A DNA stretch of 64,000 nucleotides from an uncultured Bacteroidota bacterium (GCA_963713725.1 CAVQMZ010000029.1:100369-164368); one strand, 5' to 3'. Numbered from the stretch's first letter, positions 3,546 to 38,595 are shown. Numbers and translations: made by a program. Notes: a model not told the origin generated them from the sequence alone.

Positions 3546-3564
3546 AATTGTTACTTATTTCATG

Positions 3565-5645: not shown

Positions 5646-5743
5646 AATGGAGTGTTCGTTGGTTAGTATCGTGCCAATAAAAGTATTCAATCATCAGCCA
5701 AGGCAATTGCTCCAATCCTCCAAATCCTTGTCGAAATCTGCTC

Positions 5744-10856: not shown

Positions 10857-12248
10857 TTAATCTTTATTAAGAGGCATGGGATACACATTTGATCCACCTC
10901 CCTGTTGCTGCACTCCCTGGGGAATGGAGGCCTTAAATTCGAGCAGCATTTTGCTGAAGCGTTTCACTTCCTCAGGATATCGATCGGCCACATTGTCGAG
11001 TTCCATGCATTGGGGATCGGCCTCAAAGTCGTATAACTCTTTGCGCGATCCGTCAGGGTTCATCAGAAACTTCCACTTGCCCGAGCGCATGGCCAGGCTG
11101 GGACTCTTGTTGGAGGTGTGGCCCGCCTGTATACCTATCCAGTCCCAGTAAAGGGGCTGCTTCCTTTGCACCGATTCGCCCAAAAAGACCTTACTCATGT
11201 CCTGACCGTCGGAGTGGTAGTCATCAGGCAGTTCAATGCCTGCCAGGCTGCAAAAGGAAGGCAGCAGATCGACCGCGGCAACAATGCTCTTGTCATCCAC
11301 CCTGCCGGCGGGTGTATGGCCCTTCCACTGAAGGATGAATGGAACCCGCACGCCTCCCTCATAGAGGCTCCTCTTACGCCCCCTGAACGGGCCGGCCGAG
11401 CCAATCGCGCTATGGCCTGCTCTAATGCCGCTGATGTCCTCTGGTCCGTTATCACTGGAAAACACGATGATGGTCTCTTCAGCCAGGCCCAGGTCCTCAA
11501 TCGTCCCGACCAGGCGTCCAAGATGATAATCCAGGTCCGTTACCGCACCATAATAGATTTGGGCAGGGGTCGAAAATCCCCTTTCCCTGGCCTCACCATG
11601 GGGACCCCATTGTGCATAAGGCTCCATTTGCTCATCTGTTGTAACCAGGGTGGTATGCGGCACCAGGGTCCAGAGATTAATATAAAAGGACTCTTCCTTA
11701 TTGGTCTTGATAAAGTCTATGGCCTCGTCGACCATTACCTCCGTGGATTGATGCTGGGGGACATTCAATTTCTCGTACCTGGAATTGCTTGTATAGTGCA
11801 CATCAATCCCATAGGCAGAGAAAGGAGGTGCATCTTCTGTAGACCCGAGATGCCATTTTCCGAAATGACCGGTTTTATATCCTTGCTGGTGCATCAGTTT
11901 CGTAAGTATGGTGACATTGGGGTCCAGATAATCCGCCATATTTTGAGCCGCATTGCGTGCGTGACCACCTCCAAGATGCCTGTGTATCCGGTGCCTGGCT
12001 GGAAATTGCCCTGTCATGACGGCCGTCCTGGAGGGTGAACATACTGGATTGGCCACATAGAAATTGGTCACCAGTAAACCCTCTTCAGCCATCTTATCGA
12101 GATAAGGAGTTTTGAGGCGAGAGTGCCCGTAGCAGCCCAGATCGCCCCAACCCAGATCGTCGGCGAAAATGAAGATAAAATTCGGACGCGCCGATACTGA
12201 TGTGGAAAAAATTAAGAGCAGTACAATTGCCTTGAATATCTTTGACAT
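10857..12248 (-). CDS. Sulfatase (Cys-type), secreted.
   Basis: Intact 463-aa ORF with a signal peptide, FIFADDLGWGDLGCYG, PVCSPSRTAVMTGQFPARH, GKWHLG, SSDNGP and GGVRVPFILQWKGH. Confidence 0.9.
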   Translation of the reverse strand: MSKIFKAIVLLLIFSTSVSARPNFIFIFADDLGWGDLGCYGHSRLKTPYLDKMAEEGLLVTNFYVANPVCSPSRTAVMTGQFPARHRIHRHLGGGHARNAAQNMADYLDPNVTILTKLMHQQGYKTGHFGKWHLGSTEDAPPFSAYGIDVHYTSNSRYEKLNVPQHQSTEVMVDEAIDFIKTNKEESFYINLWTLVPHTTLVTTDEQMEPYAQWGPHGEARERGFSTPAQIYYGAVTDLDYHLGRLVGTIEDLGLAEETIIVFSSDNGPEDISGIRAGHSAIGSAGPFRGRKRSLYEGGVRVPFILQWKGHTPAGRVDDKSIVAAVDLLPSFCSLAGIELPDDYHSDGQDMSKVFLGESVQRKQPLYWDWIGIQAGHTSNKSPSLAMRSGKWKFLMNPDGSRKELYDFEADPQCMELDNVADRYPEEVKRFSKMLLEFKASIPQGVQQQGGGSNVYPMPLNKD

Positions 12249-12266
12249 CTTTATTTCTTTTGTTGG

Positions 12267-12328
12267 TTATTGAGTATTTCCTCTTTCCTTTGAAAAGCAT
12301 TTAGGATCAGGATGTTCGGGGAGCGTCC
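12267..12328 (-). pseudogene. 62-nt relic of a sulfatase 3' end (stop codon plus the last ~20 codons), paralogous to the 3' end of 13758..15134.
   Basis: nt 12267..12328 matches nt 13758..13819 at 58 of 62 positions (hand-counted). It translates to ...TLPEHPDPKCFSKERGNTQ* versus ...TLPEHPDPKCYSKERGNSQ* in the intact gene. There is no sulfatase body upstream of it. Confidence 0.65.
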
Positions 12329-12345
12329 CATGGATTCCGAATCAT

Positions 12346-13587
12346 CTAATATTTCCAGTCTATTTTGGCTTGTCCCTTTTCTGTATCAACCCAAACACTG
12401 GCATGCTCAAATTCGCGGGTGAACTCCCAGCCATTGGGATCCGTTCTTTTGTAGGCTCCTCTAGGTGCGCCAAGTGGTTTGTGTAATTCCGGATAGTCAT
12501 ACAGCGAACCATCGGACAAATCCCATCCCCAACCGTATTGAAAAAAAGAATAGGGCTGCGCACCTATCAGAAAGCAAGCCAGATGATATTCTATTCGTTC
12601 CTTAGCCAACAGAACCATTCTTTCCTCTCTGGTCTGGGCCGTGCCCAACATACTTTCATATTCTTCAACAAACGGTCCTTTTCCGACACCTACGCGGAAT
12701 ACTGACATTTTCCCATCCCTTGCAAGGCGCAGCATATTGTCCCAATCTTTAAGTAGCGTTTCCTTGCTCAAAAGAGCTGAACTGTAATGCTCAAACATGT
12801 TTGCATCAATGGCTGGATAAGCGTATCGGGCAATCTCATCGGTAGTATTGTTACCAAGTACTATCTTATCGGGCCCCAGTTTCTTTTTTAATGCTGAAAT
12901 CAACTCACCCTGAGCTTTATGCACTTCTTCTTTCCTGTCTTCACGTAGAGAGAAAAAGCCATGCATTTGGTCAATAAATGCCCCATCGCAACCAGACTCT
13001 TCAACTCCTCTGGCAACAGTTTCAACCCACCATTTTCGAAAATCAGGATTCAAAACATCGAAAGAATACGTATGCCTAATATAATTTTCCCGGTAGTTCA
13101 ATTTCCCGGTTTCCGGGTTAACGAGCAAGTAACTTTTCAGCTCAGGATAATCGTTAATTTTTTCAGGTGTGAAGTTCTTACTATAAGAAGTAAATGGCCA
13201 TGCCCATGCCGAGTTAAAATAGAAAAGCACTTTTATATGGGGATTTACCTTTTTAAATGCTGCGGCTTCATGTTTTGTTCCTAATTCAGCTGCTCCCAGT
13301 TCATCCAGCCCATGCGATTTTTCAATAGTTAGAAAACCGGTTTTTCCTGCAATAAATCTCACCTCCTCTGGGGTCAAAAGGTGCTTCGTATCCCCAAACA
13401 TGTAATACATTGGTGTTGTGTTCCAGCTAAACCTGGGATAGAAATCCTGTGGCTCGAACAAACTACCATCACTGACGAATAAGGGCTGATCTGTTTCCGA
13501 TGGATTCTGAGCAGTCAAATCTGCCTTAAAGCCAAATATCAGAATTGCTATACAGATGTAAATACTCTGTTTAATGCTATTTTTCAT
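12346..13587 (-). CDS. Secreted putative glycoside hydrolase, GHL/GH114-style TIM-barrel-like domain (family copy 1).
   Basis: Intact ORF. The likely start is the internal Met with a signal peptide (MKNSIKQSIYICIAILIFGF). It shares CDGAFIDQ, IVLGNN, MFEHY, ACFLIGAQPYSFF and WEFTREFEHASVWVDTEKGQAKIDW with the three other copies. The family name is from memory and needs HMM confirmation. Confidence 0.55.
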   Translation of the reverse strand: MKNSIKQSIYICIAILIFGFKADLTAQNPSETDQPLFVSDGSLFEPQDFYPRFSWNTTPMYYMFGDTKHLLTPEEVRFIAGKTGFLTIEKSHGLDELGAAELGTKHEAAAFKKVNPHIKVLFYFNSAWAWPFTSYSKNFTPEKINDYPELKSYLLVNPETGKLNYRENYIRHTYSFDVLNPDFRKWWVETVARGVEESGCDGAFIDQMHGFFSLREDRKEEVHKAQGELISALKKKLGPDKIVLGNNTTDEIARYAYPAIDANMFEHYSSALLSKETLLKDWDNMLRLARDGKMSVFRVGVGKGPFVEEYESMLGTAQTREERMVLLAKERIEYHLACFLIGAQPYSFFQYGWGWDLSDGSLYDYPELHKPLGAPRGAYKRTDPNGWEFTREFEHASVWVDTEKGQAKIDWKY

Positions 13588-13757
13588 GGTATCTAATTTA
13601 TTTCTTAATACCCAACTTGAGAGCAGGGCTGCCAGGTTGATTACCGCATCCCGGGAAGACAAGTATGGAAAAAAGTAGAATACAAACAATTCCTTTGAAT
13701 TTGAAGCAGGCAAAATGAATTTTCATAATCAGATTTGAATTGGATTTTAGCTCCGCA

Positions 13758-15134
13758 TTATTGACTATTTCCTCTTTCCTTTGAATAGCATTTAGGATCA
13801 GGATGTTCGGGGAGTGTCGATTTCCAATCTTCCAGTTTTTTAACAAGCTCTATTACTTGTTCCGGATGCTCTTCCTGAATATCATATTTTTCGTAAGGAT
13901 CTATACTTACATCATAGAGTTCCACTTCATCGGAATTGAGGCTTGCCAGTAGTTTCCATTTTCCATCCAAAATGGCATAGTCCGCTCCGGTTCCTGCACC
14001 TTTCCCGATAGCCTGCCTTTTCCAGAAGAGCGGTTTTTCGCGCAGGGGAGATTTCTCTCCCTTTAATGTCGCCAGTTGACTGATCCCGTCGGGCTGGTAA
14101 TCCAGAGGCAAAGTGACTCCTGCTACCTCGCAAAAAGTTGGCAATAGATCAACCGCGGAAATCCAGGATACCTCATCCATTTCTCCTGCCGGAATTTTCC
14201 CGGGCCAACGTGCGATAAAAGGAAGACCGATACCTCCCTGCCAAAGAGTTCCTTTGCGTCCTTTTCGACCTCCCGTAGTACCCATACAGGGGCCATGTCC
14301 GTCTACAATACCCGTAGCTTCATCAATCATAATCTTACCACCCTTTTTGCCACTTCCGGCCGGACCATTGTCGGAACTGAAGATGACAAGGGTATTCTCC
14401 TTCAGGCCCAGGCGATCCAGCTCATCAAGGACCTGTCCAATCCTGTCATCGGCATGAGATAAAACAGAAGCGTAAATTTGATCGGCTTCATCAAGCTCAG
14501 AAAAACGTTCGAGATATTCAGGTAAGGTGTAAAATGGCGTGTGCGGCTCATGCAGCCACATATTGATGAAGAAGGGCTTTCCTTCATTATGACTCTTTTC
14601 GATAAATGCAATGGCGTTTTCAGCATCCTGGTGAACCGGTGTTCGTGGGGCAGAACTATTGAAGGCTGCAACTTCATCGTAACCATAAACATTTGGTACC
14701 GGAGCGTCGCTCAATCCACTCGAAAGATGCCATTTGCCAAAATGAGCCGTGGCATAACCTGCTTCCTTCAATAATCTTGGAAGCATAACAAGTTCAGGAT
14801 CAACCCAGTCACCCTGATTCTGCATTTCATTATACCTGGGCGTATGAAAGTGCCCGGTCACATTAAATCGAGCCGGAAAACAACCGGTCAACACACCTGT
14901 TCGACTGGGAGAGCAAATGGCACTCGCAACGGTAAAGTTTGTAAATTCAATGCCTTCTTCCGCCAGGCGATCGATATTCGGAGTCTTCACGTAGGCGTGG
15001 CCATGACAACTCAAATCGCCATAACCCCAGTCATCTGCAAATATGAACAGAATATTGGCTTGAGATTGACCGAGAGCAGATACCCCTGTAAATGAAAGCA
15101 GGATGGAGAAAAAAACTATTATTAACTTTTTCAT
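13758..15134 (-). CDS. Sulfatase (Cys-type), secreted.
   Basis: Intact 458-aa ORF with a signal peptide, LFIFADDWGYGDLSCHG, AICSPSRTGVLTGCFPARF, GKWHLS, SSDNGP and GGIGLPFIARWPGKI. Confidence 0.9.
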   Translation of the reverse strand: MKKLIIVFFSILLSFTGVSALGQSQANILFIFADDWGYGDLSCHGHAYVKTPNIDRLAEEGIEFTNFTVASAICSPSRTGVLTGCFPARFNVTGHFHTPRYNEMQNQGDWVDPELVMLPRLLKEAGYATAHFGKWHLSSGLSDAPVPNVYGYDEVAAFNSSAPRTPVHQDAENAIAFIEKSHNEGKPFFINMWLHEPHTPFYTLPEYLERFSELDEADQIYASVLSHADDRIGQVLDELDRLGLKENTLVIFSSDNGPAGSGKKGGKIMIDEATGIVDGHGPCMGTTGGRKGRKGTLWQGGIGLPFIARWPGKIPAGEMDEVSWISAVDLLPTFCEVAGVTLPLDYQPDGISQLATLKGEKSPLREKPLFWKRQAIGKGAGTGADYAILDGKWKLLASLNSDEVELYDVSIDPYEKYDIQEEHPEQVIELVKKLEDWKSTLPEHPDPKCYSKERGNSQ

Positions 15135-15145
15135 CTGATTGGCAT

Positions 15146-17510
15146 TTATTTACTTGAAATTTTAAATCCAATTACCGGTTGATCAGGTATTTTCTCAGGC
15201 ATCTTGATTAGTAGGCCCTGGCGTGAATGTTCCCAAAGCAGTTTCTCATCGCTGCCCAACATGGTGATTTCTGCAACTTTGCCGGTGTAGAGTCCTTTCT
15301 GGCAAAGTTTTCTTATGAATACATCTCCCGTGGGTGGAGCAAGAATGAAGGCATAGATTATATCTCCTTTTGTTGTAAAGCGTATATCTCTGGGCGAATA
15401 GGCTTCCAGGTTTTCTCCTATTCGTGATGTAATGATTTCGGTTGGTCCTTCGCCATATGTTATCCATGGCCGTGTGCCATAGATCCCCTCCCCATTAATC
15501 TTTAGCCAATCACCCAGCGCCTCCAGCATCGCGGCCTGGTTCTCAGGGAGCGTACCATCCCCGCGCAGGGCAACATTCATCATTACTACACCGTTTTTAC
15601 TGATAACATCTACTGCGTTCGCTATTAGCACCGGGATGCTCATTCGTGGCTCGGCTCCTTTCCGGTAATTCCAGCTGCCTGAAAGATCGGTTGCCCACAT
15701 CCAGGGGTAGGGCTGAAGCTCGCCAAACATGCCCCGCTCCAGGTTATAGGTAAAGGCAGCCTTATTCATATTCATTTCTTTAAATGATAGAACAACGGTC
15801 TGCTCCCCCCCGTTTTCCTCCAGGTCACGATTGACGTAGGAAGAGAATAACCTAACTCCTGAATATTCTTGCTTTTCATCAGGATAGGGTGAGTCATTGT
15901 TAAACATGTCGGGGTCGTATTTTTCGATAATTTCCCAACACCGCGCATACCAATGCTCGTTCCAGCTATCCTGAGTCCTGTAAGCACTTGGACTGTAATC
16001 CATGTTAAAAAGTTTCCACTCCAGGGTCCCGGCATAACTAGAATCCCGGGAATTTTTCAAGTAGGCCGGCGACCAGTAAAGATGCGAAGAGACTCCAAAC
16101 TTGAGTCCGTGTTTGACTGCTGCCGCCTTCCACTCCCCAAGGATATCGCGTTTGGGTCCCATATCTACAGAGTTCCACGGGTGGAATGATTCATACCGGT
16201 CGAAGTTGGCGTGATGGCTACCCACCGGCATAATAAAACAGGCACCGTTGTCTTTAAAAAATTTTACCAATGCATCGGGATCCCATTTCTCTGCTTTCCA
16301 GAGATCGATGCGTTCGCGGGCAGAAAGCCCTTCCGGGCGGTCTTCAACTGAACCAGGTCCCCAGTGCGACCAAATACCGATCTTGCCATCCCTAAACCAT
16401 TGGGGAGGCTCGTATTTCGCTGCCATTGACTCCCAGTTGGGCTCGATTTTTTTCAGGGGTGTGAAAGCATGTGGTTCAATCTTAGCTTCTTTCGTTTCGA
16501 GATCTATAGTAACAGTCAAATTTTCAAAATCACGGGTATACACCCAGCCCTCGCGTACGGCACTGCCCAGGGCTTTCCCTGGAGCCAGATCATATTCAGG
16601 GTAATTCTTAAACATCCCCTGAGTTTTATTATAGCCTGAGTTAAACAGGTAGTAGCTGTTTGGTCCATGAAAAAGTAAATATGAGGCAAAACTAAAGAGA
16701 AAGGGATCCTGTTGGGTGCCGGGCAATACAGAACTCGGTTTGCCGCAGGGTATGATCATCTTGCCTGCTTTTTCAGCTTCAATGAGATTGTCAAAGAGGA
16801 AAGCTGCTTCTTCCTTTGTATCAAGAGGTTTATGTAAGAAGAATTCAATAAATACTCCCGAGGTGTGATCAATAAAATCCTGACCACCCTGAAGGGCGGT
16901 GGTATCAACCCGGAAGCCGTTATATATTACTATTTTATCTTCACCGATCTTTGCCCGAACCATATCAATCATTTTGAACAGGCTTTCGTACTGTTCCTTC
17001 GGAACTTTCGGGGCAGCATCCAGAAATACACCATCCAGCTCACCTCTTAGAATTGGATCGACTATGGCATTCACCCACCAGCTCTGGACCTCGGGATTAT
17101 TCAGATCATACATGGGGACCGGATCAGCTTTCGCGTGTTGAAAGACCCAGTCCCGGTAAACCCATTCAGGATGTTTATTAAATTCCGTTTGAGACTCATA
17201 GAAGTTCCAGTTGAGAACTATGTTCCAGTACATCAGAACTTTGATATCCGGATTTATTTCTTTTAGCTTTTTGGCTGTTCCGATGGTGGCTGCCTCTGTA
17301 TTCGGTTTGGGTCCGTAGTCAGCCCAGGCATGTCTTTTTTCAACTGTGAAAATGGAATAGTTTTTCGCGATATACTCGTACTCCTCCGGGGTAAAATCAT
17401 TGGGCTCGCTAAAGCCATGACCATACCTTTGAATTCCATCAGGAATAATCCTGCGCCGTTAAATGAATCCCGATCGCAAGGGATAGTGACAGAAATAGAA
17501 TTGATCTCAT
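15146..17510 (-). CDS. Two-domain secreted enzyme: N-terminal GHL-style TIM-barrel-like domain (copy 4) fused to a C-terminal divergent GH29-like domain. One frame break just after the signal peptide.
   Basis: ORF 15146..17233 stays open in frame up to ~17455. The signal peptide MRSILFLSLSLAIGIHLTAQ starts at ATG 17510..17508 in another frame. The N-terminal half has LDGVFLDAAPKV, IVIYNG, VFIEFF and WVYTRDFENLTVTIDLETKEAKIE. The C-terminal half has KIGIWSHWGPGSV, FIMPVGSHHANFDRYES, KRDILGEW, PDMFNNDSP, VVMMNVALRGDGTLP and GDWLKINGEGIYG. Confidence 0.6.
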
Positions 17511-17531
17511 TTTTATCTTTTTTTGGTGTAT

Positions 17532-19010
17532 CTACTGGATTATCTTCAGTGCATAGCCCGGAGTTGAGTTTTTGAAGCCTGGAAGAGTCACCAAAACCCC
17601 ATTGTCAGTCTCTTTCCAAGAGATTGCCTCTGACTCACCGAGCATGGTGATACGCTTGATCGGTATCCCTTTGAGGGCTTTGATCACGATTTTGCTGTCC
17701 TCTGGACGTTTGAGGGCAGACACATAGATATTGTTCCTTGCGGGTGAACCAGAAGTGCTGGGGAGTCAATTGCCGGTCAAAGCTTCCTTTCTCACCACCT
17801 GGTCTGGAGCGCTGGATGGTATGGGGACCTTACTGGTGCTCGTCCACGGCTTTGAACCATATACGGCCTCTCCGTTGACCTTTAGCCATTTTCCTGCATC
17901 CAGCAGGTTCCTGATGGATTCTTTGGGTATTTTACCATTTCCCATTGGACCGACGTTGAGAAGGAAATTACCGCCCTTGCTTGTGTTTTCAAGTAGCCAG
18001 TACAGGGTCTCCAGGGGTGATTTCCAGTCGTCGTCATAGGATTTGTAGCCCCAGGAGTGATTGGTTGTTGCGATGCCTTCCCAGGTGTTTTCACTGGCTT
18101 CGGCAGGAATCTTATTATCACCGGGTGTGCCGATGTCTCCCATGTCGTTGCCGATGCGCTGATTCACAAGGATTTCGGGATTAGCGGTGTAGACTGTTTT
18201 ATAGAATTCAAAGCTGTGATGTGGTGGCATATAGAGCGGGGTATCAAACCAGAGCTCGCTTAAGTCGTAATTGTCGAGTAACTCGCGCACCTGTGGTAAG
18301 GACTTGTTGTTAATGTAGTCGTCGAATTTGACAGGTGCCGGATCCCAGGCATTCACGAAATTCTCCCACTTGGGATTTTCTGAGGGACCATAGTCCTTCA
18401 TGCCAGCGTCCCCTCCATCAGCCCAGTCCACCGAATGCGAGTAGTAGACCCCAAAATCTATGCCTCCGCGTTTGCAAGCCTGCTCCAGTTCGCGGATTAT
18501 ATCGCGCTTGAAAGGGGTCGCCTGGACCACGTTGTAGTCACTGGCCTTGGTATCGAAAAGCGCAAAGCCATCGTGGTGCTTGGAGGTGATCACCATGTAG
18601 TTCATCCCTGCGGCTTTAGCGATGGCAACCCACTCATCGGCATCGAACTCGACCGGATTGAAGCTTTGGGCCAGTTTGGCGTATTCTGCCCTGGGGATCT
18701 CCTTATTTCGCATAATCCATTCTGCAACCTTAGGCCCGATACCGTTCTCTTCCATCTTCTGTCCTTCCCAGATGCCACCAAGCTGGGAATAAATCCCCCA
18801 GTGAATGAACATGCCGTATTTATTTTCATTAAAACGTTCACGGCCACGCTGCTTGGCGTCTGAAGCATTCATTTTTGTCCATTGCTCACGCATTTCTGCC
18901 GGAACCTCAGCGTCTGCATAAATTTGGGCCGAACCGTCAATGGATAGTGCCAGCGATATTAATACCACTCCAAAAATTGATTTCATCATTTCTCTGATTT
19001 TTTTGTTCAT
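17532..19010 (-). CDS. GH29 alpha-L-fucosidase, secreted. One frame break near the C-terminal domain.
   Basis: ORF 17766..19010 has a signal peptide, YGMFIHWGIYSQ, YMVITSKHHDGFALFDT, KRDIIREL, LSELWFDTP, FLLNVGPMGNGKIP and GKWLKVNGEAVYG. ORF 17532..17723 supplies the C-terminal beta-sandwich end. Confidence 0.85.
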
Positions 19011-19015
19011 AGTTC

Positions 19016-20754
19016 TTAAAGTGCTTCAACTTCTGTGAAATAGGCACCTCCTGCATCTCCATTTGAATCATATAAGTAGGTGAGCAGTTCTGAGGGCCCG
19101 GCCGGCAGATCAATTTCAAAGACCACTCCTTTACTTCCCGCTTCCACGCTTTGCTCCATGGTTTGTCCCGCAACCTCGATTCTTGCAGATTCAGCGATAA
19201 GGGTTTTATCCGCTTCTTCGGGAAACTGCCGCAAGGTGATCCTGTACGCACCGGCTTTCTTCACCTGGATCATCCAGGGACCGGTGACACGTGGCAATCT
19301 GCTGATCGAGTTGAAGTTCCAGGGTGGATTTCCCTTTGGCATATACCAGTCCTGTGAGCACAGGACGGTGGGATTCTGGGCGGGATTGCCCACATCGATC
19401 CGGACCACGGTCAGCCGCGGAGAGACTTTCTGCCAGAAGGGCTCATACAGGGATCGCATTTTGGCCACAACATCAGAGTGCTTTTCTGCTACGTTAATTC
19501 TTTGGGATGGATCTGACTCCATGTCAAACAATCCCTGTTCCTCAGAATTCACCAGGCGCCAGCGTTCCGTCAATACCACAGAATACTCGAAAGGCCCCGA
19601 AGGCAATGATCTGGCTCCGGCTCCACCGTGAAACTGTATCACATGATGATCCCGGCTCCACTTCTGATCGGCTCCTTCAAGGAGCGGCTTCAATGATACT
19701 CCGTCTGGTTCATACTCCTCCGAAACAGTGATGTCGCATAGTTCCGCCAATGTTGGCAAAATATCAATATGGGCAGCGATCTGGTCTATATCCCTTCCCC
19801 CATGAATTCCACCTCCTGGCCAATAGATAAAAAAGGGTACCCGGTGGCCTCCATCATAAACCGATGATTTTTTACCACGCATCCCTGCGTTGTAACCTAC
19901 AATTGCTTCCGAATCCAGACCGTTGAATTTCCCACCGGCAGCGGTCCCGTTGTCGGTCATAAAGATCAGGATGGTATTTTCATCCAGCCCCAGGTCCATA
20001 AGCTTCTGGCGCAGGATCCCCATGTTATGGTCAATATTGGCAATCATGCCGTAGAAATTCGGATTGGCCACCCTGGCATTATTCTGATAAGGTTCCGCCC
20101 ACTGTTCCGGTACACGATAGGGACCATGCGGCGCATTGAGTGGCAAGGTATAGGAAGAAGGGGTTTTCTTTATTTTGTTCGATAAAGCGGATGCCTTCCC
20201 TGAACCAGACATCTGTACAATAGCCTTCAAACTGTTCGAAGCTTCCGTTGCGTTCGTAGGTATCGTCAAAATAGTCATTGCCCCAGTAGTCAGAAGCCTG
20301 GCCGACTCCGCCGCAGCGGTGCCATACCACATCCTGGAATCCCCTGGTCCTGCGGGCGGTGGGGAGCATTGTCTCCCAGGTGCCATTTGCCCACCATCCC
20401 GGTGGCATAACCGGCATCCGAGAACAGGTTTGCCATGGTAAGTTCATCCCTGTGCATCATGCTGCGCCCAGAGCTGGTGCGATAAGCTCCGGTATATCCC
20501 GGGTTGTTACCCGTCATTATGGCCGCACGTGTGGGCGTGCAAAAGGGGCTGACATGAAAATCGGTAAAGCGAACCGACTCGTCGTGAAAGACATCCAGAT
20601 TTGGAGTTTTAAGGATGGGATTTCCATGGCAGCCCAGATCACCGTATCCCTGATCGTCTGTAAGGATGAGTATGACATTGGGCCTGTGCCAGGAAGGATT
20701 AAACAAGCAAAATGAAGGCAAAAAGCAACACAGCAGGATACTTCTTCTAGTCAT
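19016..20754 (-). CDS. Sulfatase (Cys-type) with a ~150-aa C-terminal extension. Two frame breaks as read.
   Basis: Fragments are 20290..20754 ([41 protein letters not shown]), 20079..20447 and 19016..20386 ([23 protein letters not shown]). It is a paralog of 30242..32044 over its full length, including the C-terminal extension. Confidence 0.8.
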
Positions 20755-20879: not shown

Positions 20880-23800
20880 TTACTTTTTGACTATTTTTAT
20901 GCTTTGAGTATGCTCTTTGTAAGTAGTCTTTACTAGATACATCTCACATGGCAAATCTTTCATATCAAAAGAGCCCATCCCATTGCTGAGTATACCTGAC
21001 AATACCACCTGACCAAGGCTATTGATTATTTCAAGCTTTGCTGTTTCAGCCCCTTTCAGCTCAATATTTATGATATCATTCACAGGATTAGGATATATTT
21101 TCATACCCTCGTTTATTGTATTCTTAATATCGGATGGTAAAGGGATCAGGATCACAGATAGAACTGTATCCTTAGATAGAGCCAAGGATTCACTAATCCC
21201 GGTATAACCCTCTTTACTTAAGGTATAAGTGTATTCCCCTTCAGACAGATCCAGGGATATATTACCCTGCTCATCTGTAAGATAAACTGTATCGTTAATC
21301 GATATAGAAACAGCCTCCAGCTTCTCCATAGAAACTGAATCTTTCACTTGAAACTCGAGCGAATACATCTTTTTGCTCATCAGAATTGCCAGTGTAGTGT
21401 CTTTTGTAAGGCTCAGGCTTTGAGAAAGCATGCTATACTTATCATGACTTATTGTATAGGTATATTCTTCTTCCATTAGATCAATTGAAGCGAATCCCAG
21501 TTCATCGCTCCTGATAAGAGTGTCAGCAATTGCAAGATCCGCATCTTGAATCACTGTCAGGGTATTTGTATCCCTAAGCTCGAATGCAAGCGTAAATTTT
21601 TCTTTTGGTATTAATCTGATTGTAAGCGTGGTGTCTTGTGCTAAATCAATGACTTTTGATACCGAGTGGTAAGCATAAGCACTTAAAGCATAGTTATATG
21701 AGCCGGACGATAAGTCTACCGAAACTGCACCAGCTTCATTTGTTGCATATTGTAGATTATTTATGTCTACGATTACATCAGGCAGGTTTGCATTTGAACT
21801 TTCATCACTTACAATAAATGACAGCTCAATTGATGCATCATAGACCTCTACCTCAGCTAAACTTATAACACCTCCATCCAACTCAATTCTTACAATTTTT
21901 CCTCTTACGCCACCCGCATCAACAGTAACTGAAGGGTCGGGGTAGGAGGCGAAGAATTGAGAGAAAGTAGTATCCCCGCTACTATCCAAAATATAGACTG
22001 TAAAATTTGATAGTCGATCCTTACAACAGTCATCGGTTCTGCCAAAAATCTCTATTTGATCAATGTTGTATTCAGATAAAAGATCGACCTGCCACCAGGG
22101 AATAGCTTCCCCACCGGCAGTGTGAGTTGTTGATCCTGAATTATATATACCATCTGTATTTCCATCAATTGCACGTGATGCAACTCCGCCATAATCTGTT
22201 GAGGATTGGGTTGCTACGCCGTTTAAAGCAATATTCCTGCTATCCACTGCGCTTGGTATATGACATACCGTTGTGGTATTTATTGGATTAAAAACAGAAC
22301 ACTCAGCAGATGGAATAAGTGTTAATGTATCTGCCGAATTTGGACCATCAGAAGACGCTGTTTCAAATTTATAAGTATAAGTTGCAACAGAATCACCTTC
22401 AATATCTTGATTTACATTGTAGATAATCTCATACAAACCTGTTTCTGTATCATATTCCGTCTGCCAAAAATCCTTTCCATGATTCGATTGATCAACCAGA
22501 GTGCTTACACCATCATCTACACGCCATAGTTTGGGATCTTCAATATTGCTTAGTTTTGAGAATACAATGGGTACATATCCCACACCTCCGCTTACGGTAA
22601 CTTCTGCTTTATTATCTACAGCTTCGATGGTCAATGGGTATCCTTCATGTACTGCATTGGTGGCAGAGCTTGCTGTTATCGTATTCCCAACAGCTTCGCG
22701 ATGTACTAATTCCCACGAATTACCATAAGTTGTAAGCGCAGCTCTAAAATTCTCGTTTGGCCCATAGTAGACGTCCGCTACTTTTGGCAGAAGGCACACT
22801 TCAACCAGGAGTTCGATGGAATCACCTGCAGTAAATGAAGTAACACCAGGTGGCGGAACGATGCAATAGGATGTTGGGTTTTGCCCTGTACTGGCAGAAT
22901 AACCTGTAGAACTCACACGCTCTCTAAAATAAGGTGTATTGTTTGATTCTCCAGCAAAAGAAGCATTGTATGAACGAATTATCATCGAAGAATTTCCATG
23001 AATAGCCAAGCCGGCAAAATCTCTTGTATATATGCCATCTCCCGCCCATATCCAGGGGGTTTTCCCTGATAAAGCAATAGGGTCTGTTGTATAATCATTA
23101 ATGGTCGAATTTGTGGGTGTAAACTGCCCTGCAACTCCTGCACTATCGCCATAAACAAGGTCCTGAGCTTTGAAAAGATTATAATTATCGCTCCCTAATT
23201 GAAAAATATCAAATCTACTAAATGCGACATCTTTTAGCGCTTTGACCTTAACTTTATAGTATACCCTTAAATAATCGTCGGATCTTTGAAGCTGAAATGT
23301 ATAATCCATTTTCAGCGCGTTGTCGGAGGAGTATGTGCCAATTTTCGTTTCTGTCAGGTTTGGACCATACTTTACAAACCTTGTTTTTACCTGAGACTGG
23401 TAAATGCGCGAACCACTTCCATTATCATATCTAAACAGATCCAGGCCCCCTAAATTACCAGTCCAGCCATACTCACTCGATTCAAGCCCGTAGTATTTAT
23501 TGGTAACTAAAAATGGTCTGTAATCACAGACATTGGTATTTCCATATTCATAATCAGGTGAATGAGTTACACTTTCCCCAAACGATCCTAATGCTGCCTG
23601 AAGCCATCCTCCGCGAGGCACTCCTGCACCAACCACACTTAGCTGATGCGATGAGGCAGCATACACATTTCCCCACAATGCCCCTACACGAGTATAATCA
23701 AATTTTAATGTTGTGTTGGCAGGGATAATTAGTTCCGTGTATTCCTTTGAATAGGCGTTTGGGATTGCCGCGTATAACAATGAATTTGTTTTATGCCAGT

Positions 23801-24944
23801 TTTTCGAAATTTGTAATGGGATACCTGAAGGATCTCCATTTGAGTTTCTAATCATTGATGTAAACCCTGTTACGTTTTTATGCGAATTATCGTAAAAGCA
23901 TAGCCGCACTCTCTTGCTCTCCGGCTCGTTATTTTCTATTTCAATATTAATATTCTGTAATATACCAGTGTTATCCTCGTTGTTATTTCCCATATTATAA
24001 CTCGGAACATCAATAAAATATACCCCCTCGTCTTTCGAGAAGCTTACCGGCGCTGATGATGTTTGATCAGGTAATGTTTGCGAGCTTGTAATGCTAAGGT
24101 TTTGACCATCATCCGCCGTGTTTGCATACCTGGTACAGAAATTATCTTTTACAGCATAAAAAATCAGACTGAGTGTGTATTGTGTGTCAGCCTGAAGTGT
24201 TTTAGCAGATGTTGTTACTGTAATGGTATTTCCACATACAGCAATAGAATCGGCTGTAATACCACCTTTTACGGCAAAACCCTTACCTTCTTTGCCTGTG
24301 GCGAAGCCATAAACACCATCTGAATAGAATACCTCACTAAAAGCATCAGGCATGTCTACTATGAGCTGCATCTGTCCATCGGTGATTTTTTCTCTCAGTT
24401 TTAGCTGAAATGCAATTCGAAACCTATTGTGCCAGTTTGTAAATTCAACCCCGGTATAGGAGCCATATACCGATGCACTGTTGGTGAAGTTCAGGCTATC
24501 TAACACACGGCGATTACACCAGGTACCATAATCTGCCATTTGGGAAATTTGCCCTCCTTGTCGGGTAGGAGCCGATGCACTCAGCTCATTAAATACAGAC
24601 CCGTCTTTTAAAATTTTAACCTCTATATCCCCAGCTTGTGTTGTACTAAATGTTGCAGCATTTGATTCCTCAAAGCCTCTCGATGGGCTGATTTCGCCTG
24701 AATTAATATTGAGACTGGCAATACTGAGTCCCGTGTAATTAATACTTAGCTTATAAGAACTGGTTTGATTTGTAAATTTGCGGGTTGAAATACCAGCTGT
24801 TTTCCAGTTTGAATCCCAGTAGGTATAATTGTAAGTGTTCTTTGCATTGTTATAAGATTCATAGCCTATAGCATCCACTACTGCTTGACCATAGGAAGTA
24901 ATGTAAATAAGGATCACTAAGAAACTTGCCAGTACTTTTTTCAT
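20880..24944 (-). CDS. 1354-aa T9SS-sorted modular protein. Signal peptide, ~870-aa region with no motif I recognise, F-type-lectin/discoidin-like domain, three ~85-aa beta-sandwich repeats, T9SS C-terminal domain.
   Basis: Single intact ORF. The C-terminus KIYPNPVNDIINIEL...MYLVKTTYKEHTQSIKIVKK is a typical Por/T9SS sorting domain. Three tandem repeats share the pattern ...D..G.....L..G.Y.Y.....Y......L.L..DT.L.I.L. The lectin-like domain is listed separately below. Confidence 0.7.
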   Translation of the reverse strand: MKKVLASFLVILIYITSYGQAVVDAIGYESYNNAKNTYNYTYWDSNWKTAGISTRKFTNQTSSYKLSINYTGLSIASLNINSGEISPSRGFEESNAATFSTTQAGDIEVKILKDGSVFNELSASAPTRQGGQISQMADYGTWCNRRVLDSLNFTNSASVYGSYTGVEFTNWHNRFRIAFQLKLREKITDGQMQLIVDMPDAFSEVFYSDGVYGFATGKEGKGFAVKGGITADSIAVCGNTITVTTSAKTLQADTQYTLSLIFYAVKDNFCTRYANTADDGQNLSITSSQTLPDQTSSAPVSFSKDEGVYFIDVPSYNMGNNNEDNTGILQNINIEIENNEPESKRVRLCFYDNSHKNVTGFTSMIRNSNGDPSGIPLQISKNWHKTNSLLYAAIPNAYSKEYTELIIPANTTLKFDYTRVGALWGNVYAASSHQLSVVGAGVPRGGWLQAALGSFGESVTHSPDYEYGNTNVCDYRPFLVTNKYYGLESSEYGWTGNLGGLDLFRYDNGSGSRIYQSQVKTRFVKYGPNLTETKIGTYSSDNALKMDYTFQLQRSDDYLRVYYKVKVKALKDVAFSRFDIFQLGSDNYNLFKAQDLVYGDSAGVAGQFTPTNSTINDYTTDPIALSGKTPWIWAGDGIYTRDFAGLAIHGNSSMIIRSYNASFAGESNNTPYFRERVSSTGYSASTGQNPTSYCIVPPPGVTSFTAGDSIELLVEVCLLPKVADVYYGPNENFRAALTTYGNSWELVHREAVGNTITASSATNAVHEGYPLTIEAVDNKAEVTVSGGVGYVPIVFSKLSNIEDPKLWRVDDGVSTLVDQSNHGKDFWQTEYDTETGLYEIIYNVNQDIEGDSVATYTYKFETASSDGPNSADTLTLIPSAECSVFNPINTTTVCHIPSAVDSRNIALNGVATQSSTDYGGVASRAIDGNTDGIYNSGSTTHTAGGEAIPWWQVDLLSEYNIDQIEIFGRTDDCCKDRLSNFTVYILDSSGDTTFSQFFASYPDPSVTVDAGGVRGKIVRIELDGGVISLAEVEVYDASIELSFIVSDESSNANLPDVIVDINNLQYATNEAGAVSVDLSSGSYNYALSAYAYHSVSKVIDLAQDTTLTIRLIPKEKFTLAFELRDTNTLTVIQDADLAIADTLIRSDELGFASIDLMEEEYTYTISHDKYSMLSQSLSLTKDTTLAILMSKKMYSLEFQVKDSVSMEKLEAVSISINDTVYLTDEQGNISLDLSEGEYTYTLSKEGYTGISESLALSKDTVLSVILIPLPSDIKNTINEGMKIYPNPVNDIINIELKGAETAKLEIINSLGQVVLSGILSNGMGSFDMKDLPCEMYLVKTTYKEHTQSIKIVKK
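21838..22235 (-). other. F-type lectin / F5/8-type-C (CBM47-like) putative fucose-binding domain inside the 1354-aa protein.
   Basis: NIALNGVATQSSTDYGGVASRAIDGNTDG...STTHTAGGEAIPWWQVDLLSEYNIDQIEIFGRTDDCCKDRLSNFTVYI...ISLAEVEVY. The ATQSS, AIDGN, HT..., PWWQVDL and R.DCC..RL strings are characteristic of F-type (fucolectin) domains, as I recall them. Confidence 0.6.
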
Positions 24945-25905: not shown

Positions 25906-28900
25906 CTAGGAGAATTCGGATGGGGAGTAACCGAATTTCTTTTTGAATGCATGACTGAAATGTGAAGCAGATTCAATGCCCACTTCATACATAACGCTTT
26001 TCACGCTGATGCCAGGATTCCCGGCCAGGAGGTCTGCAGCTGCCTGCAGACGATAATTTCTAAGGTAGGCATTGGGAATTTGGCCTGTCAGTAGTTTTAG
26101 CTTCCGGTAGAGCTGGGAGGTGCTCAGGTTTACCTCAGCAGCAAGTTCCTCCACACCAAAGGATGAATCGTCCAGGTTGTCCTGAATGGCTTTGTTCACC
26201 ATCTCGATGAAATCGGTATCGATTCCGGATATCTGGACATCGGCGGGAAGGGAACTGGATTGGTTAAAATGAGCCTTAAGTTTTTCCCGGTTCTCAATCA
26301 GATTCTGAACTGTTACTTCCAGGTACTTCAGATTAAATGGTTTTGACATATAGGAATCAGCACCATGCACCATGCCCTGGATATGGCTATCGATTTCTTC
26401 CAGTGCAGTAAGAAGGATGAAGGGGATATGGCATAATTGAATGTCTGTTTTGACTTTTTTGCAAAACTCGTATCCGTTAAGGCCGGGCATCATTACGTCA
26501 CTGATAATGATATCCACCTCGCCGGTGGCGGCAATTTCCAGCGCATCCGTTCCGTTTGCTGCTTCAATGATCCGGTATTTCTTTTGAAGTACATTTTTGA
26601 TAATACTTCTGAATTCACTCTCATCGTCAGCAACCAGTACTGTGTTTTTATTATTATTGGCCGGGTTTTTTCCCTGGCTGACGTCATAGCTTATATTGTC
26701 GTGTTCCAGCATTTCGCTGGCATTGAGCCTTCGGATGTCTGTTTTGCTGAAGAGCTCCGAATAGGATTCATCCAGCGGGATACTGACCGAAAAACAGGTC
26801 CTTTCTCCGGGAGTGCTTTCTACCTTTATCTTACCTTTGTGGAGGTCAACGATGGATTTAGCGTAAGACAGCCCTATGCCTGTCCCCATATTTCTTAATT
26901 CTGACCCTGATTGATAGAAGCGTTCAAAAATCTTGTTCAGGTCATCCATTTTAATTCCCGCCCCGGTATCCGACACATCGAAACAGGCGTGTTTTTTTCC
27001 TTCAATTTCGCGTATGCTACCCTCCAGCCGGACTGTTCCATTGGGGGGTGTGAACTTGAATGCATTTGAAAGAAGATTGAACAATACCTGTTCCATTTTC
27101 TCAAGGTCCAGGTTTATTTTGAAACCAGGATCGTATACCTGGTAGTAAAACTGAATCCCTTTCTTCACGGAAAGTGATTCAAAGGCATCGGCAACCGGGT
27201 AAATAAAACCATCCAGGGAGGTCTGGGAGATTTTTAGTTCAAGTCCCGCCTGCTCTATTCTTCTGAAAGTGAGCAATTGATCTATGAGTCGAATCAGTCG
27301 GTTGCTGTTCTTCTCTATCATTTTCACATACTCCTTTTCCTCATCACCATGGACAAGCTCCTGTAGTTTCTGCAGCGGTATTGAAATTAGTGAGAGGGGG
27401 GTTTTAAATTCATGGGAAATGTTTGTAAAGAAGCGAAGCTTTGACTGGTTAACTTCCTCGATCCTTTCTTTGTCCAATTGTTCGAAATGTAGTTTGTTCT
27501 GGAGGTTTTTAAGTTTGATCATATAAATGGAAACGCCAGAGATCAGTGCCAGGGCCAGAACAAAGAAGAGGATTTTGCTGATAGTCCTTGCAAACCAGGG
27601 GGCCATCATGGTGATTTGAAGGGAGGCCTCACTTTCCGAGATAATGCCATCGCAGTTATATCCCCTGACCCTGAATGTATAATCACCGGGTGTCAGGTTT
27701 GTATAGGTGGGGGAAAAGGATCCCTGATTAACATGGATCCACTCCTTGTCGAATCCTTCAAGTATATAAGATATACGGTTCTTTTCCGGAATGGCAGTAT
27801 GGTAGGCGGTTACTTCAATGGAAACGGTCCTGTCGTCCCTGTAAAGGATCAACTCTTCAACTTCAGAAATGTCCTTGTCAAGAATGGTTCTGCCCCCCAC
27901 TTTATCACCCACAGAAACGATTTTATTATTGATTTTAAGATTCGTAAGACGAACATCAGGAGGGATTAAATTTGCACTGATCTGGCCTGGTTTAAAGATG
28001 GTTAAGCCATTTAATCCCCCGAAAAAGTAGTATCCGGAATTGCCCTTATGGTATGCGCTCTGCCTGAAGTTATTGCCAGGGAGCCCATCGTGGATATTAT
28101 AGTTCGTGGTTTTGAATGTCCGTGTATTCAAAACGGATATTCCCATATCCGTTCCGCACCAGAGCGTGGAATCATTCTCTATAATAATCCCGTAAATGGC
28201 ATTGTCCGACAGTCCGATTGTATCCTGGAGTCGTTCAAATTCACGCTCACTGCTTCCCGGGATATCCTTCAGCCTGTTCAATCCGCCGCCAAATGTCCCG
28301 ATCCACAGGCTCTGATTATCGTCCTTCTTCAGACTGAATATTGCATTATTGCTGATGCTGCTTTCATCACTTTCAATATGTTCATGGTGCTCAACCAGAT
28401 GCAGGGAACCTCCCTCCATGCTGAATCTGGATAATCCATGGTTATTGAAACCGACCCAGATTTCCTCGGGGCTCTGCACATTCATGGCCACAATATACCG
28501 GGGATCATCAAAGGAGTAGGAGGACTGGACAGGTATTTTTACTTTCCTGCCTGATCCAAGGTAGCTCCAGGGATCCTCCAGGACAATGATCCGGGATCCG
28601 GCCATCATGATTTTATCCTGATCAATTGGAGCAACATTTCGTATGCTCTCGACGGGTAATTTCTGTCCATTTAATTCAAACTCCACCCGGGTAAAGGATG
28701 CATTTCCCTTGTTATATACTACAATACCATCGAATTCATAGCCCAGCCAGATATTATCGTGTTTGTCCTCATAAAGGGAGAAAATGTTTTTGTCAGGGAA
28801 GATGTCGAACCATTGATCAAAACGGTCAAATTTAAGATCGGACAGGCATTTTATCGTTAATGGGTTCGGTGCTCCGGCAAAGGGGTTGATTATAGGTAGA

Positions 28901-30056
28901 AACCCATAAATAACCCTCACTGTCCTCCAGCACACAATTAATCAGGTTTCCGGGGATGGTCTGTTCATCATAGGGATGGTTCACAAAGTTGGTGAATTGT
29001 TTCTGATTCAGATCCAGTTTACAAAGCCCTGCCTGGGCAGTCCCTATCCAGAGCACGTTGAAGTTATCCTCATACAGGCAATTAATCATATTTCCACTCA
29101 GCCCTCCGCTCTTCCTTGGATCATGGCTGAAATTTGAGAATGTGTCCGCGTCCTTATTATACAGAAGCAGCCCTCCACGCCAGGTTCCGACCCAGATCCT
29201 GTCCTCATTGTCCGCGAGTGATATCAGTAATGTGATTTAAAGCGAGGAGAGATTCGGATCTGGCTCATCCTGGAAGTATTCACTTATTACGATAAGTTTA
29301 TCTCCATCCGTTGTGGTTTTATACAACCCTGCTCTGGGTACCCACCCAGATCATATTATTATGCTTTTTCAGGCAGCTTACAGACTCTTTGATTAAGACC
29401 TCAGCTTCAATTTTCAGGTTCTTCAGGCTTTCTCCCACCGACATTTTAAAAAGACCGGTACTGGTGGCCAGAAGATAACGCCCTTCACCTAACTCCAGGA
29501 GGTCAGTGATATTTAACTCAGAATTTGTGCCCTTCAGCAGGTTGGGTGACCAGAAAGTAATGATGCTGTCTTTATCTGTTTTGGTGCTCACATTGGACAG
29601 GAAATTATCTCCCACCACCCACATGGAACCGTTTGTATCTTCAATGGTCCTGTAAAGTAAACCAAGGGAATCGGATGTGACCTTTATAAATTCCTCCTTA
29701 TCCGGTGAGTAAAGATTTAACCCGCTGCTGGTAACGATCCAGACCAGCCCCTCCCGATCCGAGACGATACTTGTAATGGGGCCGTGATAGACATCCGACT
29801 GGAATTTACTTTCCCAGCTGATATTTTGAAAAGAGTAACCATTATACCTGATTAGTCCATTCGAAGTACCAATCCATATGGTTCCTGTCTTATCCTGATC
29901 AATGGATTTTACGGTATTTTGATTAAATCCCTCGCTGTTGGAAAAGGTGACAAATTGATATGTATTCTCTGCCTGACCGTAAAGCTGTGTCAGGCTAAAA
30001 AGCATGGCCAGGGCCAGGGGAATTATTAAAAAGGAATTACCGCGTTTCATCACCAT
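25906..30056 (-). CDS. Hybrid two-component system sensor kinase / response regulator with an AraC-type HTH (HTCS, ~1380 aa). At least 3 frame breaks in the periplasmic sensor region.
   Basis: Fragments are 29319..30110 (signal/TM, beta-propeller repeats TGTIWIGTSNGLIRYN), 28832..29089 and 25906..28935. The last carries a Y_Y_Y-like TNLTPGDYTFRVRGYN, a TM segment, HisKA FFTNISHEFKTPLSL, HATPase DTGAGI...GTGIGLS, receiver VLVADDE...IISDVMMPGLNGYEF and HTH_AraC ...ESASHFSHAFKKKFGYSPSEF. Confidence 0.85.
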
Positions 30057-30241
30057 TCTGTCTCTGCGTGCAAGATAAACAATATTGATAAATACCAGGC
30101 ACCTTTCCAAAGCTCAAACATAGAATGCCGGCCTGTCTTTCTGTTGCTCAAATGTTGCATTCCTTTGTTCGTTTTTGTAAACCTTGACAATGGGACATGA
30201 GTTTTTCTTACATTGTATTTACCCGAAAAATCCGTGAACAC

Positions 30242-38567: not shown

Positions 38568-38595
38568 TATCGGAATCTGATTACTGTGTGGACTG

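Follow-up and report, generated by a model that had tools for sequence, protein, structure and literature searches.

The gene considered here occupies positions 20880-24944, on the minus strand, of a 64,000-nucleotide stretch of DNA (the window, as the whole stretch analysed is called below) from an uncultured Bacteroidota bacterium (GCA_963713725.1, CAVQMZ010000029.1:100369-164368). It encodes a 1354-residue protein that, with a probability of roughly three in four, is a modular endo-fucanase of glycoside hydrolase (GH) family 187, exported by the type IX secretion system (T9SS) and making the first cuts in sulfated fucan. The gene and the parts of its product are arranged as follows, with coordinates counted from the first nucleotide of the window.

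20880..24944, minus strand: complete coding sequence, 1354 aa plus stop, predicted precursor of 148.5 kDa (open reading frame listing)
24885..24944, minus strand: predicted signal peptide, residues 1-20 (MKKVLASFLVILIYITSYGQ, followed by A at the putative cleavage site), type I, hydrophobic, with no lipobox Cys (sequence inspection)
24060..24884, minus strand: N-terminal beta-sandwich region of the unit, residues 21-295, less conserved (all-beta AlphaFold2 (AF2) model, predicted local distance difference test (pLDDT) mostly 86-97)
22347..24059, minus strand: conserved core of the putative GH187 catalytic unit, residues 296-866 (alignment, AF2, homology to WKR37939.1)
23274..23795, minus strand: candidate catalytic or substrate-binding segment, with H384 at 23793-23795, E457 at 23574-23576, D474 at 23523-23525, and D557 at 23274-23276
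21834..22259, minus strand: F-type lectin (fucolectin), resembling carbohydrate-binding module family 47 (CBM47), residues 896-1037 (PF22633/PF00754; fucolectins in the PDB)
21135..21830, minus strand: three tandem CarboxypepD_reg-like/PEGA beta-sandwich repeats of 77-78 aa, residues 1039-1270 (PF13715, two stretches; PF08308; MAFFT)
20883..21098, minus strand: T9SS type A C-terminal sorting domain (CTD), residues 1283-1354 (TIGR04183, 37.4 bits against a cutoff of 23; PF18962, 36.7 against a cutoff of 27)

An initial annotation, made from the sequence alone, had singled this gene out as the longest intact open reading frame (ORF) in the window, and it is: it runs uninterrupted from an ATG start, and the runner-up encodes 1009 aa. 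The gene is genuine, because the same gene is found without indels in a contig assembled independently from short reads of a marine-sediment metagenome (L004; Logan SRR21856590), which was reached via a cluster member of the protein (P0121) and shares ~98% DNA identity with it, the two products differing at 31 amino acids. It is a real, maintained coding sequence and no assembly accident. The metagenome runs containing the sequence are from marine-sediment, salt-marsh, and aquatic samples. Codons 1-135 (24540-24944, minus strand) differ from L004 at 9.6% of nucleotides, with 20 nonsynonymous and 16 synonymous codons, and the rest of the gene at 0.2-1.8%; the divergent tract could reflect recombination or a fast-evolving N-terminal beta-sandwich. 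A low-confidence helix lies at the N terminus of the AF2 model, over the signal-peptide region.

The first ~870 residues had been described as matching nothing recognizable. For the reference libraries this stands, as searches with the full protein (phmmer for the PDB sequences) gave no matches to residues 1-880 in Pfam, NCBIfam, or the PDB, and a 29-sequence profile of the region returned just two spurious matches to PDB sequences (E > 0.3). The region is, however, no orphan. A word-indexed search recovered it as a conserved unit of approximately residues 1-866 with 127 homologues, most of which share 45-63% identity with the query across 95% or more of its length, and the majority of which end in a T9SS CTD. 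One of these homologues, WKR37939.1 (P0048), is deposited as 'glycoside hydrolase [Wenyingzhuangia aestuarii]', and BLASTP aligns its residues 1-874 collinearly with residues 1-866 of the query (452/881 identities, or 51%; 68% positives; 2% gaps; E 3e-286 in phmmer). It is a single-gene GenBank/nr record with no assembly contig, and it is the only family member that bears a hydrolase name, whereas the RefSeq relatives are called 'T9SS type A sorting domain-containing protein' or 'hypothetical protein'. As those names are automatic, the name of WKR37939.1 looks to have been given by its submitter.

Strain OF219 of W. aestuarii is the source of both Fun174A (GH174, 80 kDa) and Fun187A (GH187, 101 kDa), each the founding endo-1,3-fucanase of its family (PMC11943901); the founder of GH187 is described as an endo-alpha-1,3-L-fucanase by Shen et al. 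(Carbohydr. Polym. 2024, as cited in PMC11943901). Minus its signal peptide and CTD, WKR37939.1 has a computed mass of ~105 kDa. From the source species, the submitter-style name, the single-gene deposit, the masses of ~105 versus 101 kDa, and the exclusion of GH107, GH168, and GH174, we infer that WKR37939.1 is most probably Fun187A. The Pfam scan gave no match of the target protein to GH107 (Pfam Mef1, PF26376). For GH168 (Pfam GHL15, PF14885), the protein matched neither PF14885 nor the 9JO* and 8YA6 structures, whereas neighbouring genes do match. For GH174, no PDB chain was matched by sequence or profile, with the presence in the PDB copy of the GH174 structure (published, according to ref. 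35 as listed in PMC12534559) being unconfirmed. Stand-alone members of the target family have 820-900 aa, and the conserved unit of ~850 aa (~95 kDa) therefore cannot fit GH174. WKR37939.1 also carries D119-I120, unlike the D119/E120 of Fun174A, whose residues are given as D119/E120/E218 in a family with other members of 54-70 kDa (PMC11943901). A bioRxiv match to 'GH187' was a false one, to GH18_7.

Families in CAZy are defined by sequence similarity over the catalytic module, and such similarity to WKR37939.1 is present, placing the unit in GH187 on condition that WKR37939.1 is itself a member. GH174 and GH187 are described as beta-sheet dominated and GH168 as a (beta/alpha)8 TIM barrel (PMC12534559), and the AF2 models of the target unit are likewise dominated by beta-sheet and contain no TIM barrel. 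The unit of residues 1-866 thus very probably belongs to GH187. The initial annotation had proposed a novel catalytic domain, and half of that proposal holds, in that the region is probably catalytic on fucose-containing glycans; it is not a novel domain but, at 51% identity to the presumed GH187 founder, a new member of a family founded in 2023-24. It could not be recognized by the libraries because GH187 has no Pfam or NCBIfam model.

Within the unit, conservation is concentrated toward the C-terminal side. Some distant relatives match only from approximately residue 280-330 onward, distant genome loci match from ~296, and profile matches come either as a single stretch of 35-855 or as 280-855 only; as the distant members match mainly residues 296-860, this stretch is the conserved core. 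The initial annotation had advised a search for conserved acidic, His, or Arg residues among homologues, and these are present. In an alignment of 95 sequences with 22-55% identity to the query, the only invariant residues are H384, L435, W447, G453, D474, P528, D557, and Q828, and a further set (E457, K381, R476, R554, Y588, and R657) is at least 90% conserved. The invariant H384, D474, and D557 and the near-invariant E457 are the sole His, Asp, and Glu residues so conserved across the 95 members, and their conservation makes D474, D557, and E457, with H384, candidate catalytic or -1 subsite residues.

The AF2 model of residues 1-880 has a pLDDT of 89.7 and a predicted template modelling score (pTM) of 0.90, and that of the core (residues 296-870, 575 aa) has values of 93.1 and 0.94. 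Both are almost wholly beta-strand, with a helical hairpin near residues 731-753 and just three short helices in the core model. The Ig-like adhesin array that had been named as an outcome that would speak against the original proposal was not found in this region. Foldseek searches with both models were made against a copy of the PDB that runs to April 2026 and includes the GH168 fucanase structures, and they returned weak matches only (template modelling (TM) score <=0.37, 7-12% identity), to galactose-mutarotase-like supersandwiches: MdoD/OpgD, the C-terminal parts of GH38, the N-terminal domains of GH36 and GH101, galactose mutarotase, and several lyases. No fucanase was among the 50 matches listed in each fold search, and this PDB copy held no close solved homologue of the N-terminal unit. 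The profile searches and structure prediction that had been recommended for this region thus gave a confident all-beta model with weak supersandwich matches but no library or PDB profile match. Judged from the models, these matches are a resemblance of fold class and not homology. In OpgD/OpgG, known from the GH186 literature, the supersandwich itself is the catalytic domain, and to our knowledge these enzymes are the sole structural precedent for a catalytic supersandwich; the modelled resemblance to them is a lead rather than a test.

The C-terminal modules were largely read correctly at the outset. The F-type-lectin-like domain is matched by F5_F8_type_C_2/F5_F8_type_C (PF22633/PF00754) at residues 904-1022 (E 4e-16), and the PDB sequence matches of the whole protein are to fucolectins only, namely FBP32 (3CQO), the Streptococcus pneumoniae fucolectin-related proteins (2J22 SpX and 2J1R), Sm-hPAF, and eel agglutinin (1K12). 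These matches span residues 896-1037, with E values of 4e-30 for 3cqo (isolated domain) and 2e-25 for 2j22, and in the alignments H941, R969, and R977 fall on the conserved His/Arg/Arg and C973-C974 on the vicinal Cys pair. We take the positions aligned to H941, R969, and R977 to be the fucose-binding residues of F-type lectins. Both the fold and the His-Arg-Arg triad of this lectin family are therefore present, bearing out the proposed fusion to a fucose-binding module; with the triad intact, binding of sulfated or neutral fucose is putative. The CBM47 of W. fucanilytica (WfCBM47) binds alpha-1,3 sulfated fucan (PMC11943901). Only 4 homologues among the 120 matches listed carry the lectin (F5/8-type-C), and the GH187-CBM47 architecture is thus less common in the family.

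Between the lectin and the CTD, the three beta-sandwich repeats are as described except for their length, which is 77-78 aa and not ~85. Pfam places CarboxypepD_reg-like and PEGA matches at about residues 1199-1265, and when all three are aligned by MAFFT with two repeats of a neighbouring T9SS ORF, seven columns are invariant; self-BLAST of the region showed no repeats, which are seen by the MAFFT alignment. They are probably a spacer stalk. A type A CTD directs secretion by the T9SS with attachment to the surface or release. Here the combination of the TIGR04183 CTD, with Por_Secre_tail (PF18962) at residues 1283-1351, and an N-terminal Sec signal marks the protein as T9SS type A cargo, in agreement with the export that had been proposed. 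The window does not contain the genes for the T9SS machinery.

Between ~10.8 and 30 kb, all genes are on the minus strand, in the order HTCS (hybrid two-component system), GH30 fragment, target gene, S1 sulfatase, GH29, GHL15/GH29 fusion ORF, sulfatase, GHL15, and sulfatase. The block downstream of the target, and the genes that make it up, were assigned by Pfam scan.

25906..30110, minus strand: HTCS regulator, upstream, split into two ORFs (Reg_prop, Y_Y_Y, HisKA, HATPase_c, Response_reg, HTH_AraC)
10857..20754, minus strand: co-directional downstream block, comprising the genes below
19016-20754, minus strand: S1 sulfatase, frame-broken
17766-19010, minus strand: GH29
15146-17233, minus strand: GH168-like (GHL15)/GH29 fusion ORF, 695 aa
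13758-15134, minus strand: sulfatase
12346-13713, minus strand: GH168-like GHL15
10857-12248, minus strand: sulfatase

Over the window as a whole, there are four GH168-like and four GH29 genes, together with S1 sulfatases, GH141 fragments, and the HTCS. Outside the block just described are further GHL15, GH29, and sulfatase genes, esterases, a major facilitator superfamily transporter, and a second T9SS protein; the window also encodes the GH30 fragment, a weak GH43-like match, and an Apiosidase-like domain protein. The GHL15 protein at 38596-39741 matches the GH168 endo-1,3-fucanase structures 9JOM (E 2.5e-123), 9JOC, 9JOF, and 8YA6, all listed as GH168 PDB codes (PMC12534559), and because of these matches the GHL15 proteins of the window are read as GH168 endo-1,3-fucanases; a statement that GHL15 and GH168 are equivalent was not found in the literature searched.

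Several other ORFs of the window deserve mention. The fusion ORF at 15146-17233 joins a partial GHL15/GH168-like domain (residues 15-239) to a full GH29 alpha-L-fucosidase (261-582) and a C-terminal domain. Either the ORF encodes a genuine fusion of endo- and exo-acting enzymes, or the join was created artificially by loss of a stop or by a frame error. A 644-aa ORF at 34565-36499 (minus strand), just downstream of the GHL15/GH168 ORF at 36921-38630 (minus strand), has a T9SS CTD and two CarboxypepD_reg-like repeats like those of the target, but lacks a signal peptide and any catalytic domain known to Pfam. It might represent the C-terminal end of a GH168-repeat-CTD fucanase interrupted by a frame break; alternatively, residues 1-410 might contain another unassigned domain. 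At 2599-5690 (minus strand), a GH141-like protein (GH141 insertion domain and right-handed beta-helix) is fragmented over several ORFs. According to a recent report, endo-fucanases are among the members of GH141 (PMC12786026).

The window had been described as full of frame breaks, and these are real: a sulfatase, GH30, GH29, GH141, and HTCS are split, as are two housekeeping genes, those for pyruvate-phosphate dikinase (49305-52015, plus strand) and phosphoenolpyruvate carboxykinase (52580-53640, plus strand). As the latter two are split too, the breaks argue for an assembly-wide property and not for decay of the polysaccharide locus. The reading frame of the S1 sulfatase at 19016-20754 is shifted twice, by an inserted C at 20346 and by a second one at 20142, which spreads the gene over three frames, and neither base is present in short-read contigs from two independent marine-sediment samples or studies. 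In L004, the sulfatase (580 aa) and GH30 (485 aa) genes are intact, and wherever they could be tested, the frame breaks are absent from independent short-read assemblies. The sulfatase breaks are thus probably assembly indel errors and not the mark of a pseudogene, and the breaks of the window are most economically explained by consensus indel errors made when the source was assembled, with strain-specific decay as a less likely alternative. The GH30 gene (25020-25755, minus strand) has an internal loss of ~650-775 nt relative to L004 2649-4106. In that contig, the intact GH30 gene ends 11 nt before the target start codon, and a ~125-nt repeat is present, with 3669-3794 resembling 4031-4150. 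The loss could stem from a deletion between repeats or from misassembly.

The family to which the N-terminal unit belongs is large. In an exhaustive profile search, 1421 clusters at 50% identity reached E <=1e-3 and 570 of them E <=1e-30, and species-representative genomes hold 402 family loci. Members occur in Bacteroidota (Saprospiraceae, Flavobacteriales, Chitinophagales, and Cytophagales), Planctomycetota, Verrucomicrobiota, Lentisphaerota, Hydrogenedentota, Latescibacterota, and others. This spread agrees with what has been reported of fucanase families in general and of GH187 homologues in marine Planctomycetota (PMC12534559 and another paper), and the GH187 homologues of Planctomycetota strain 892 are reported to lie outside polysaccharide utilization loci (PULs).

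Several homologues have neighbours similar to those of the target. In Flavicella sediminum (VDET01000014.1; L001 4568-15632), a homologue (P0054) stands among three T9SS-tagged GH107 (Mef1) genes after an AraC regulator. The four genes together form a compact battery for secreted endo-fucanases, and neither sulfatases nor SusCD are close by. A homologue in Wenyingzhuangia sp. adjoins a paralogue, an HTCS, a sulfatase, and GH95; one in Cellulophaga adjoins a sulfatase, a GH168-CTD protein, and GH115; and one in a metagenome-assembled genome of Opitutaceae is preceded by two sulfatases. Paralogues also occur together. In Wenyingzhuangia sp. 1_MG-2023 (L002 7070-13150), two copies adjoin, the upstream one being 875 aa long and lacking a CTD and the downstream one being 1049 aa long and bearing a CTD, and an 18057-nt JGI contig carries three paralogues (P0010, P0011, and P0015). 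Such clustering suggests diversified specificities within a genome.

Endo-fucanases carry out the rate-limiting and least understood step of fucan breakdown, and the features above suggest how the target could contribute to it. The protein would be exported by Sec and then translocated by the T9SS via its type A CTD, with the enzyme either released or tethered at the cell surface. By binding fucose or sulfated fucan, the CBM47-like lectin would hold the enzyme on its polymer; the three small beta-sandwich repeats would act as a spacer or stalk, and the GH187 unit (residues 21-866) would cut alpha-L-fucosidic bonds within the chains of sulfated fucan or fucoidan. The oligosaccharides so released would then be desulfated and trimmed by the adjacent S1 sulfatases, GH29 fucosidases, and GH168 fucanases, with the adjacent HTCS sensor presumably controlling the locus. 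The substrate, the linkage, and the surface attachment are predicted, as is the endo-alpha-1,3-L-fucanase activity (EC 3.2.1.211).

Several points weigh against this interpretation. The family assignment rests on convergence and elimination, and nothing tying the accession WKR37939.1 to Fun187A or GH187 was found in the literature search. The candidate catalytic residues are placed by conservation, and no published catalytic residues, mechanism, or structure for GH187 were found in the literature searched. Neighbourhoods across the family are also less uniform than that of the target: among 53 loci of at least 12 kb, examined with a 10-kb flank, a sulfatase or fucose-active GH lies within 10 kb in only 21 and a fucose-specific GH in only 11, and one Saprospiraceae copy has unrelated neighbours. 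A search for RNA runs that might hold transcript evidence found none. Finally, the identity to the presumed characterized enzyme is 51%, very few GH187 enzymes have been characterized, and GH168 sets a precedent for divergent specificities, so that the linkage and sulfation specificity of the target is uncertain.

This last point leads to the alternative that survives best, although we consider it unlikely: that the protein is a GH187-like hydrolase with another specificity, acting on alpha-1,4 or mixed-linkage brown-algal fucoidan, on a differently sulfated or branched fucan, or on another sulfated marine glycan. The 51% identity is only to a presumed Fun187A, the family is diverse, as the 1421 clusters attest, and many of its members lie outside fucoidan loci. 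GH168 contains both 1,3- and 1,4-specific members (PMC10778895), and the GH141 and GH30 fragments, the weak GH43-like match, the Apiosidase-like protein, and the esterases of the window suggest a complex, branched substrate. Set against this, the unit is fused to a fucose-specific lectin with an intact triad, its immediate neighbours are GH29, GH168, and sulfatase genes, and the sole hydrolase-named member of the family belongs to the species in which the GH187 endo-1,3-fucanase was discovered. A shift in specificity relative to Fun187A is quite possible. In a further reading, which we judge possible but less likely than not, GH187 may be a class in which a galactose-mutarotase-like beta-supersandwich serves as the catalytic domain (with D474, D557, E457, and H384), and a small GH187-CBM47 clade of marine-sediment Bacteroidota might target brown-algal fucoidan rather than the sea-cucumber fucans that define Fun187A.

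It is considerably less probable that the N-terminal region binds polysaccharide without cleaving it, making the protein a surface glycan-capture protein or adhesin. The initial annotation had raised this idea in the form of a stand-in for a missing SusD-like function. No SusC/SusD pair occurs among the 41 window ORFs scanned, which is in keeping with the idea but silent on whether the target replaces one, and the supersandwiches matched in the fold searches are accessory domains in most GH and polysaccharide lyase (PL) structures (GH36, GH38, GH101, and PL8/12/17). However, OpgD/OpgG illustrate that a supersandwich can itself be catalytic, the homologue deposited as a glycoside hydrolase is probably a characterized enzyme, the invariant Asp/Asp/His and near-invariant Glu are kept across phyla, and a dedicated lectin module is already present on the protein. 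SusD, moreover, is an alpha-helical lipoprotein, whereas the target is all-beta with a type I signal. A SusD/RagB-like lipoprotein was rejected, as the protein has no SusD/RagB Pfam match, an all-beta model, and no Cys at the signal cleavage region; its T9SS route and its own lectin likewise lend no support to the role of a SusD stand-in. A polysaccharide lyase or other non-hydrolytic depolymerase acting on uronic-acid-containing fucoidan is the least probable of all, given that its weak fold matches (heparinase II/III, PL17, PL33, and others) cover shared beta-sandwich domains at TM <=0.23, that the catalytic (alpha/alpha)n toroid is absent from a model with three short helices, and that the closest named homologue is called a hydrolase.

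If the protein is a GH187 endo-fucanase, its interest lies in annotation. As with the target, annotation pipelines commonly enter GH187 members as hypothetical or 'T9SS sorting domain' proteins, and according to one paper the family was not reliably detected by dbCAN v3. The size of the family (about 1400 clusters at 50% identity, in many phyla) and its confident all-beta model, for which there is no close solved homologue, are of practical use as well. The short list of invariant or near-invariant polar residues (H384, D474, D557, and E457) provides both targets for mutagenesis and a handle for annotation. The value of the analysis is therefore the correction of the annotation and the list of conserved residues; the target is otherwise an ordinary, nicely modular member of its family.

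The best whole-chain fold match is to the OpgD/OpgG (MdoD/MdoG) beta-1,2-glucanases (9E08; TMt 0.35-0.37, probability 1.00), all-beta enzymes in which the glycan is bound by the supersandwich, but with a low TM score, 7-9% identity, no relationship in sequence, and a different substrate and cellular location, this is a resemblance only. The GH174 enzymes (Fun174A and relatives) come from the same source genus as Fun187A and form a likewise beta-rich and recently founded fucanase family, but they are 54-80 kDa with D119/E120/E218, whereas the target unit is ~95 kDa and matches no PDB chain. With GH168 (FunA and the Fun168 series; 9JOC, 9JOM, and 8YA6), the target shares the expected reaction class of endo-fucanase and the locus itself, but GH168 is a TIM barrel to which the target has no sequence or fold similarity.

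The lectin module compares closely with the CBM47/F-type lectins (SpX-1, 2J1R; FBP32, 3CQO; eel agglutinin, 1K12; and WfCBM47), as the whole domain at residues 896-1037 aligns and both the triad and the vicinal Cys pair are kept; unlike the F-type lectin motif, it has a one-residue insertion between Arg-x-Asp and Cys-Cys (RTDDCCKDR). The closest counterpart of the protein as a whole is Fun187A (presumed to be WKR37939.1). The two differ beyond the catalytic unit, where the target (1354 aa) has the CBM47-like lectin, three CarboxypepD_reg-like repeats, and the CTD, and WKR37939.1 (1059 aa) has ~110 aa with no Pfam match and then the CTD. A GH187 enzyme of strain OF219 is reported to lie within a PUL. 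In the remaining respects they correspond: the N-terminal units (~866 aa) align collinearly with 51% identity, each protein has a signal peptide and a T9SS CTD, and both have a beta-sheet-dominated fold and belong to marine Bacteroidota.

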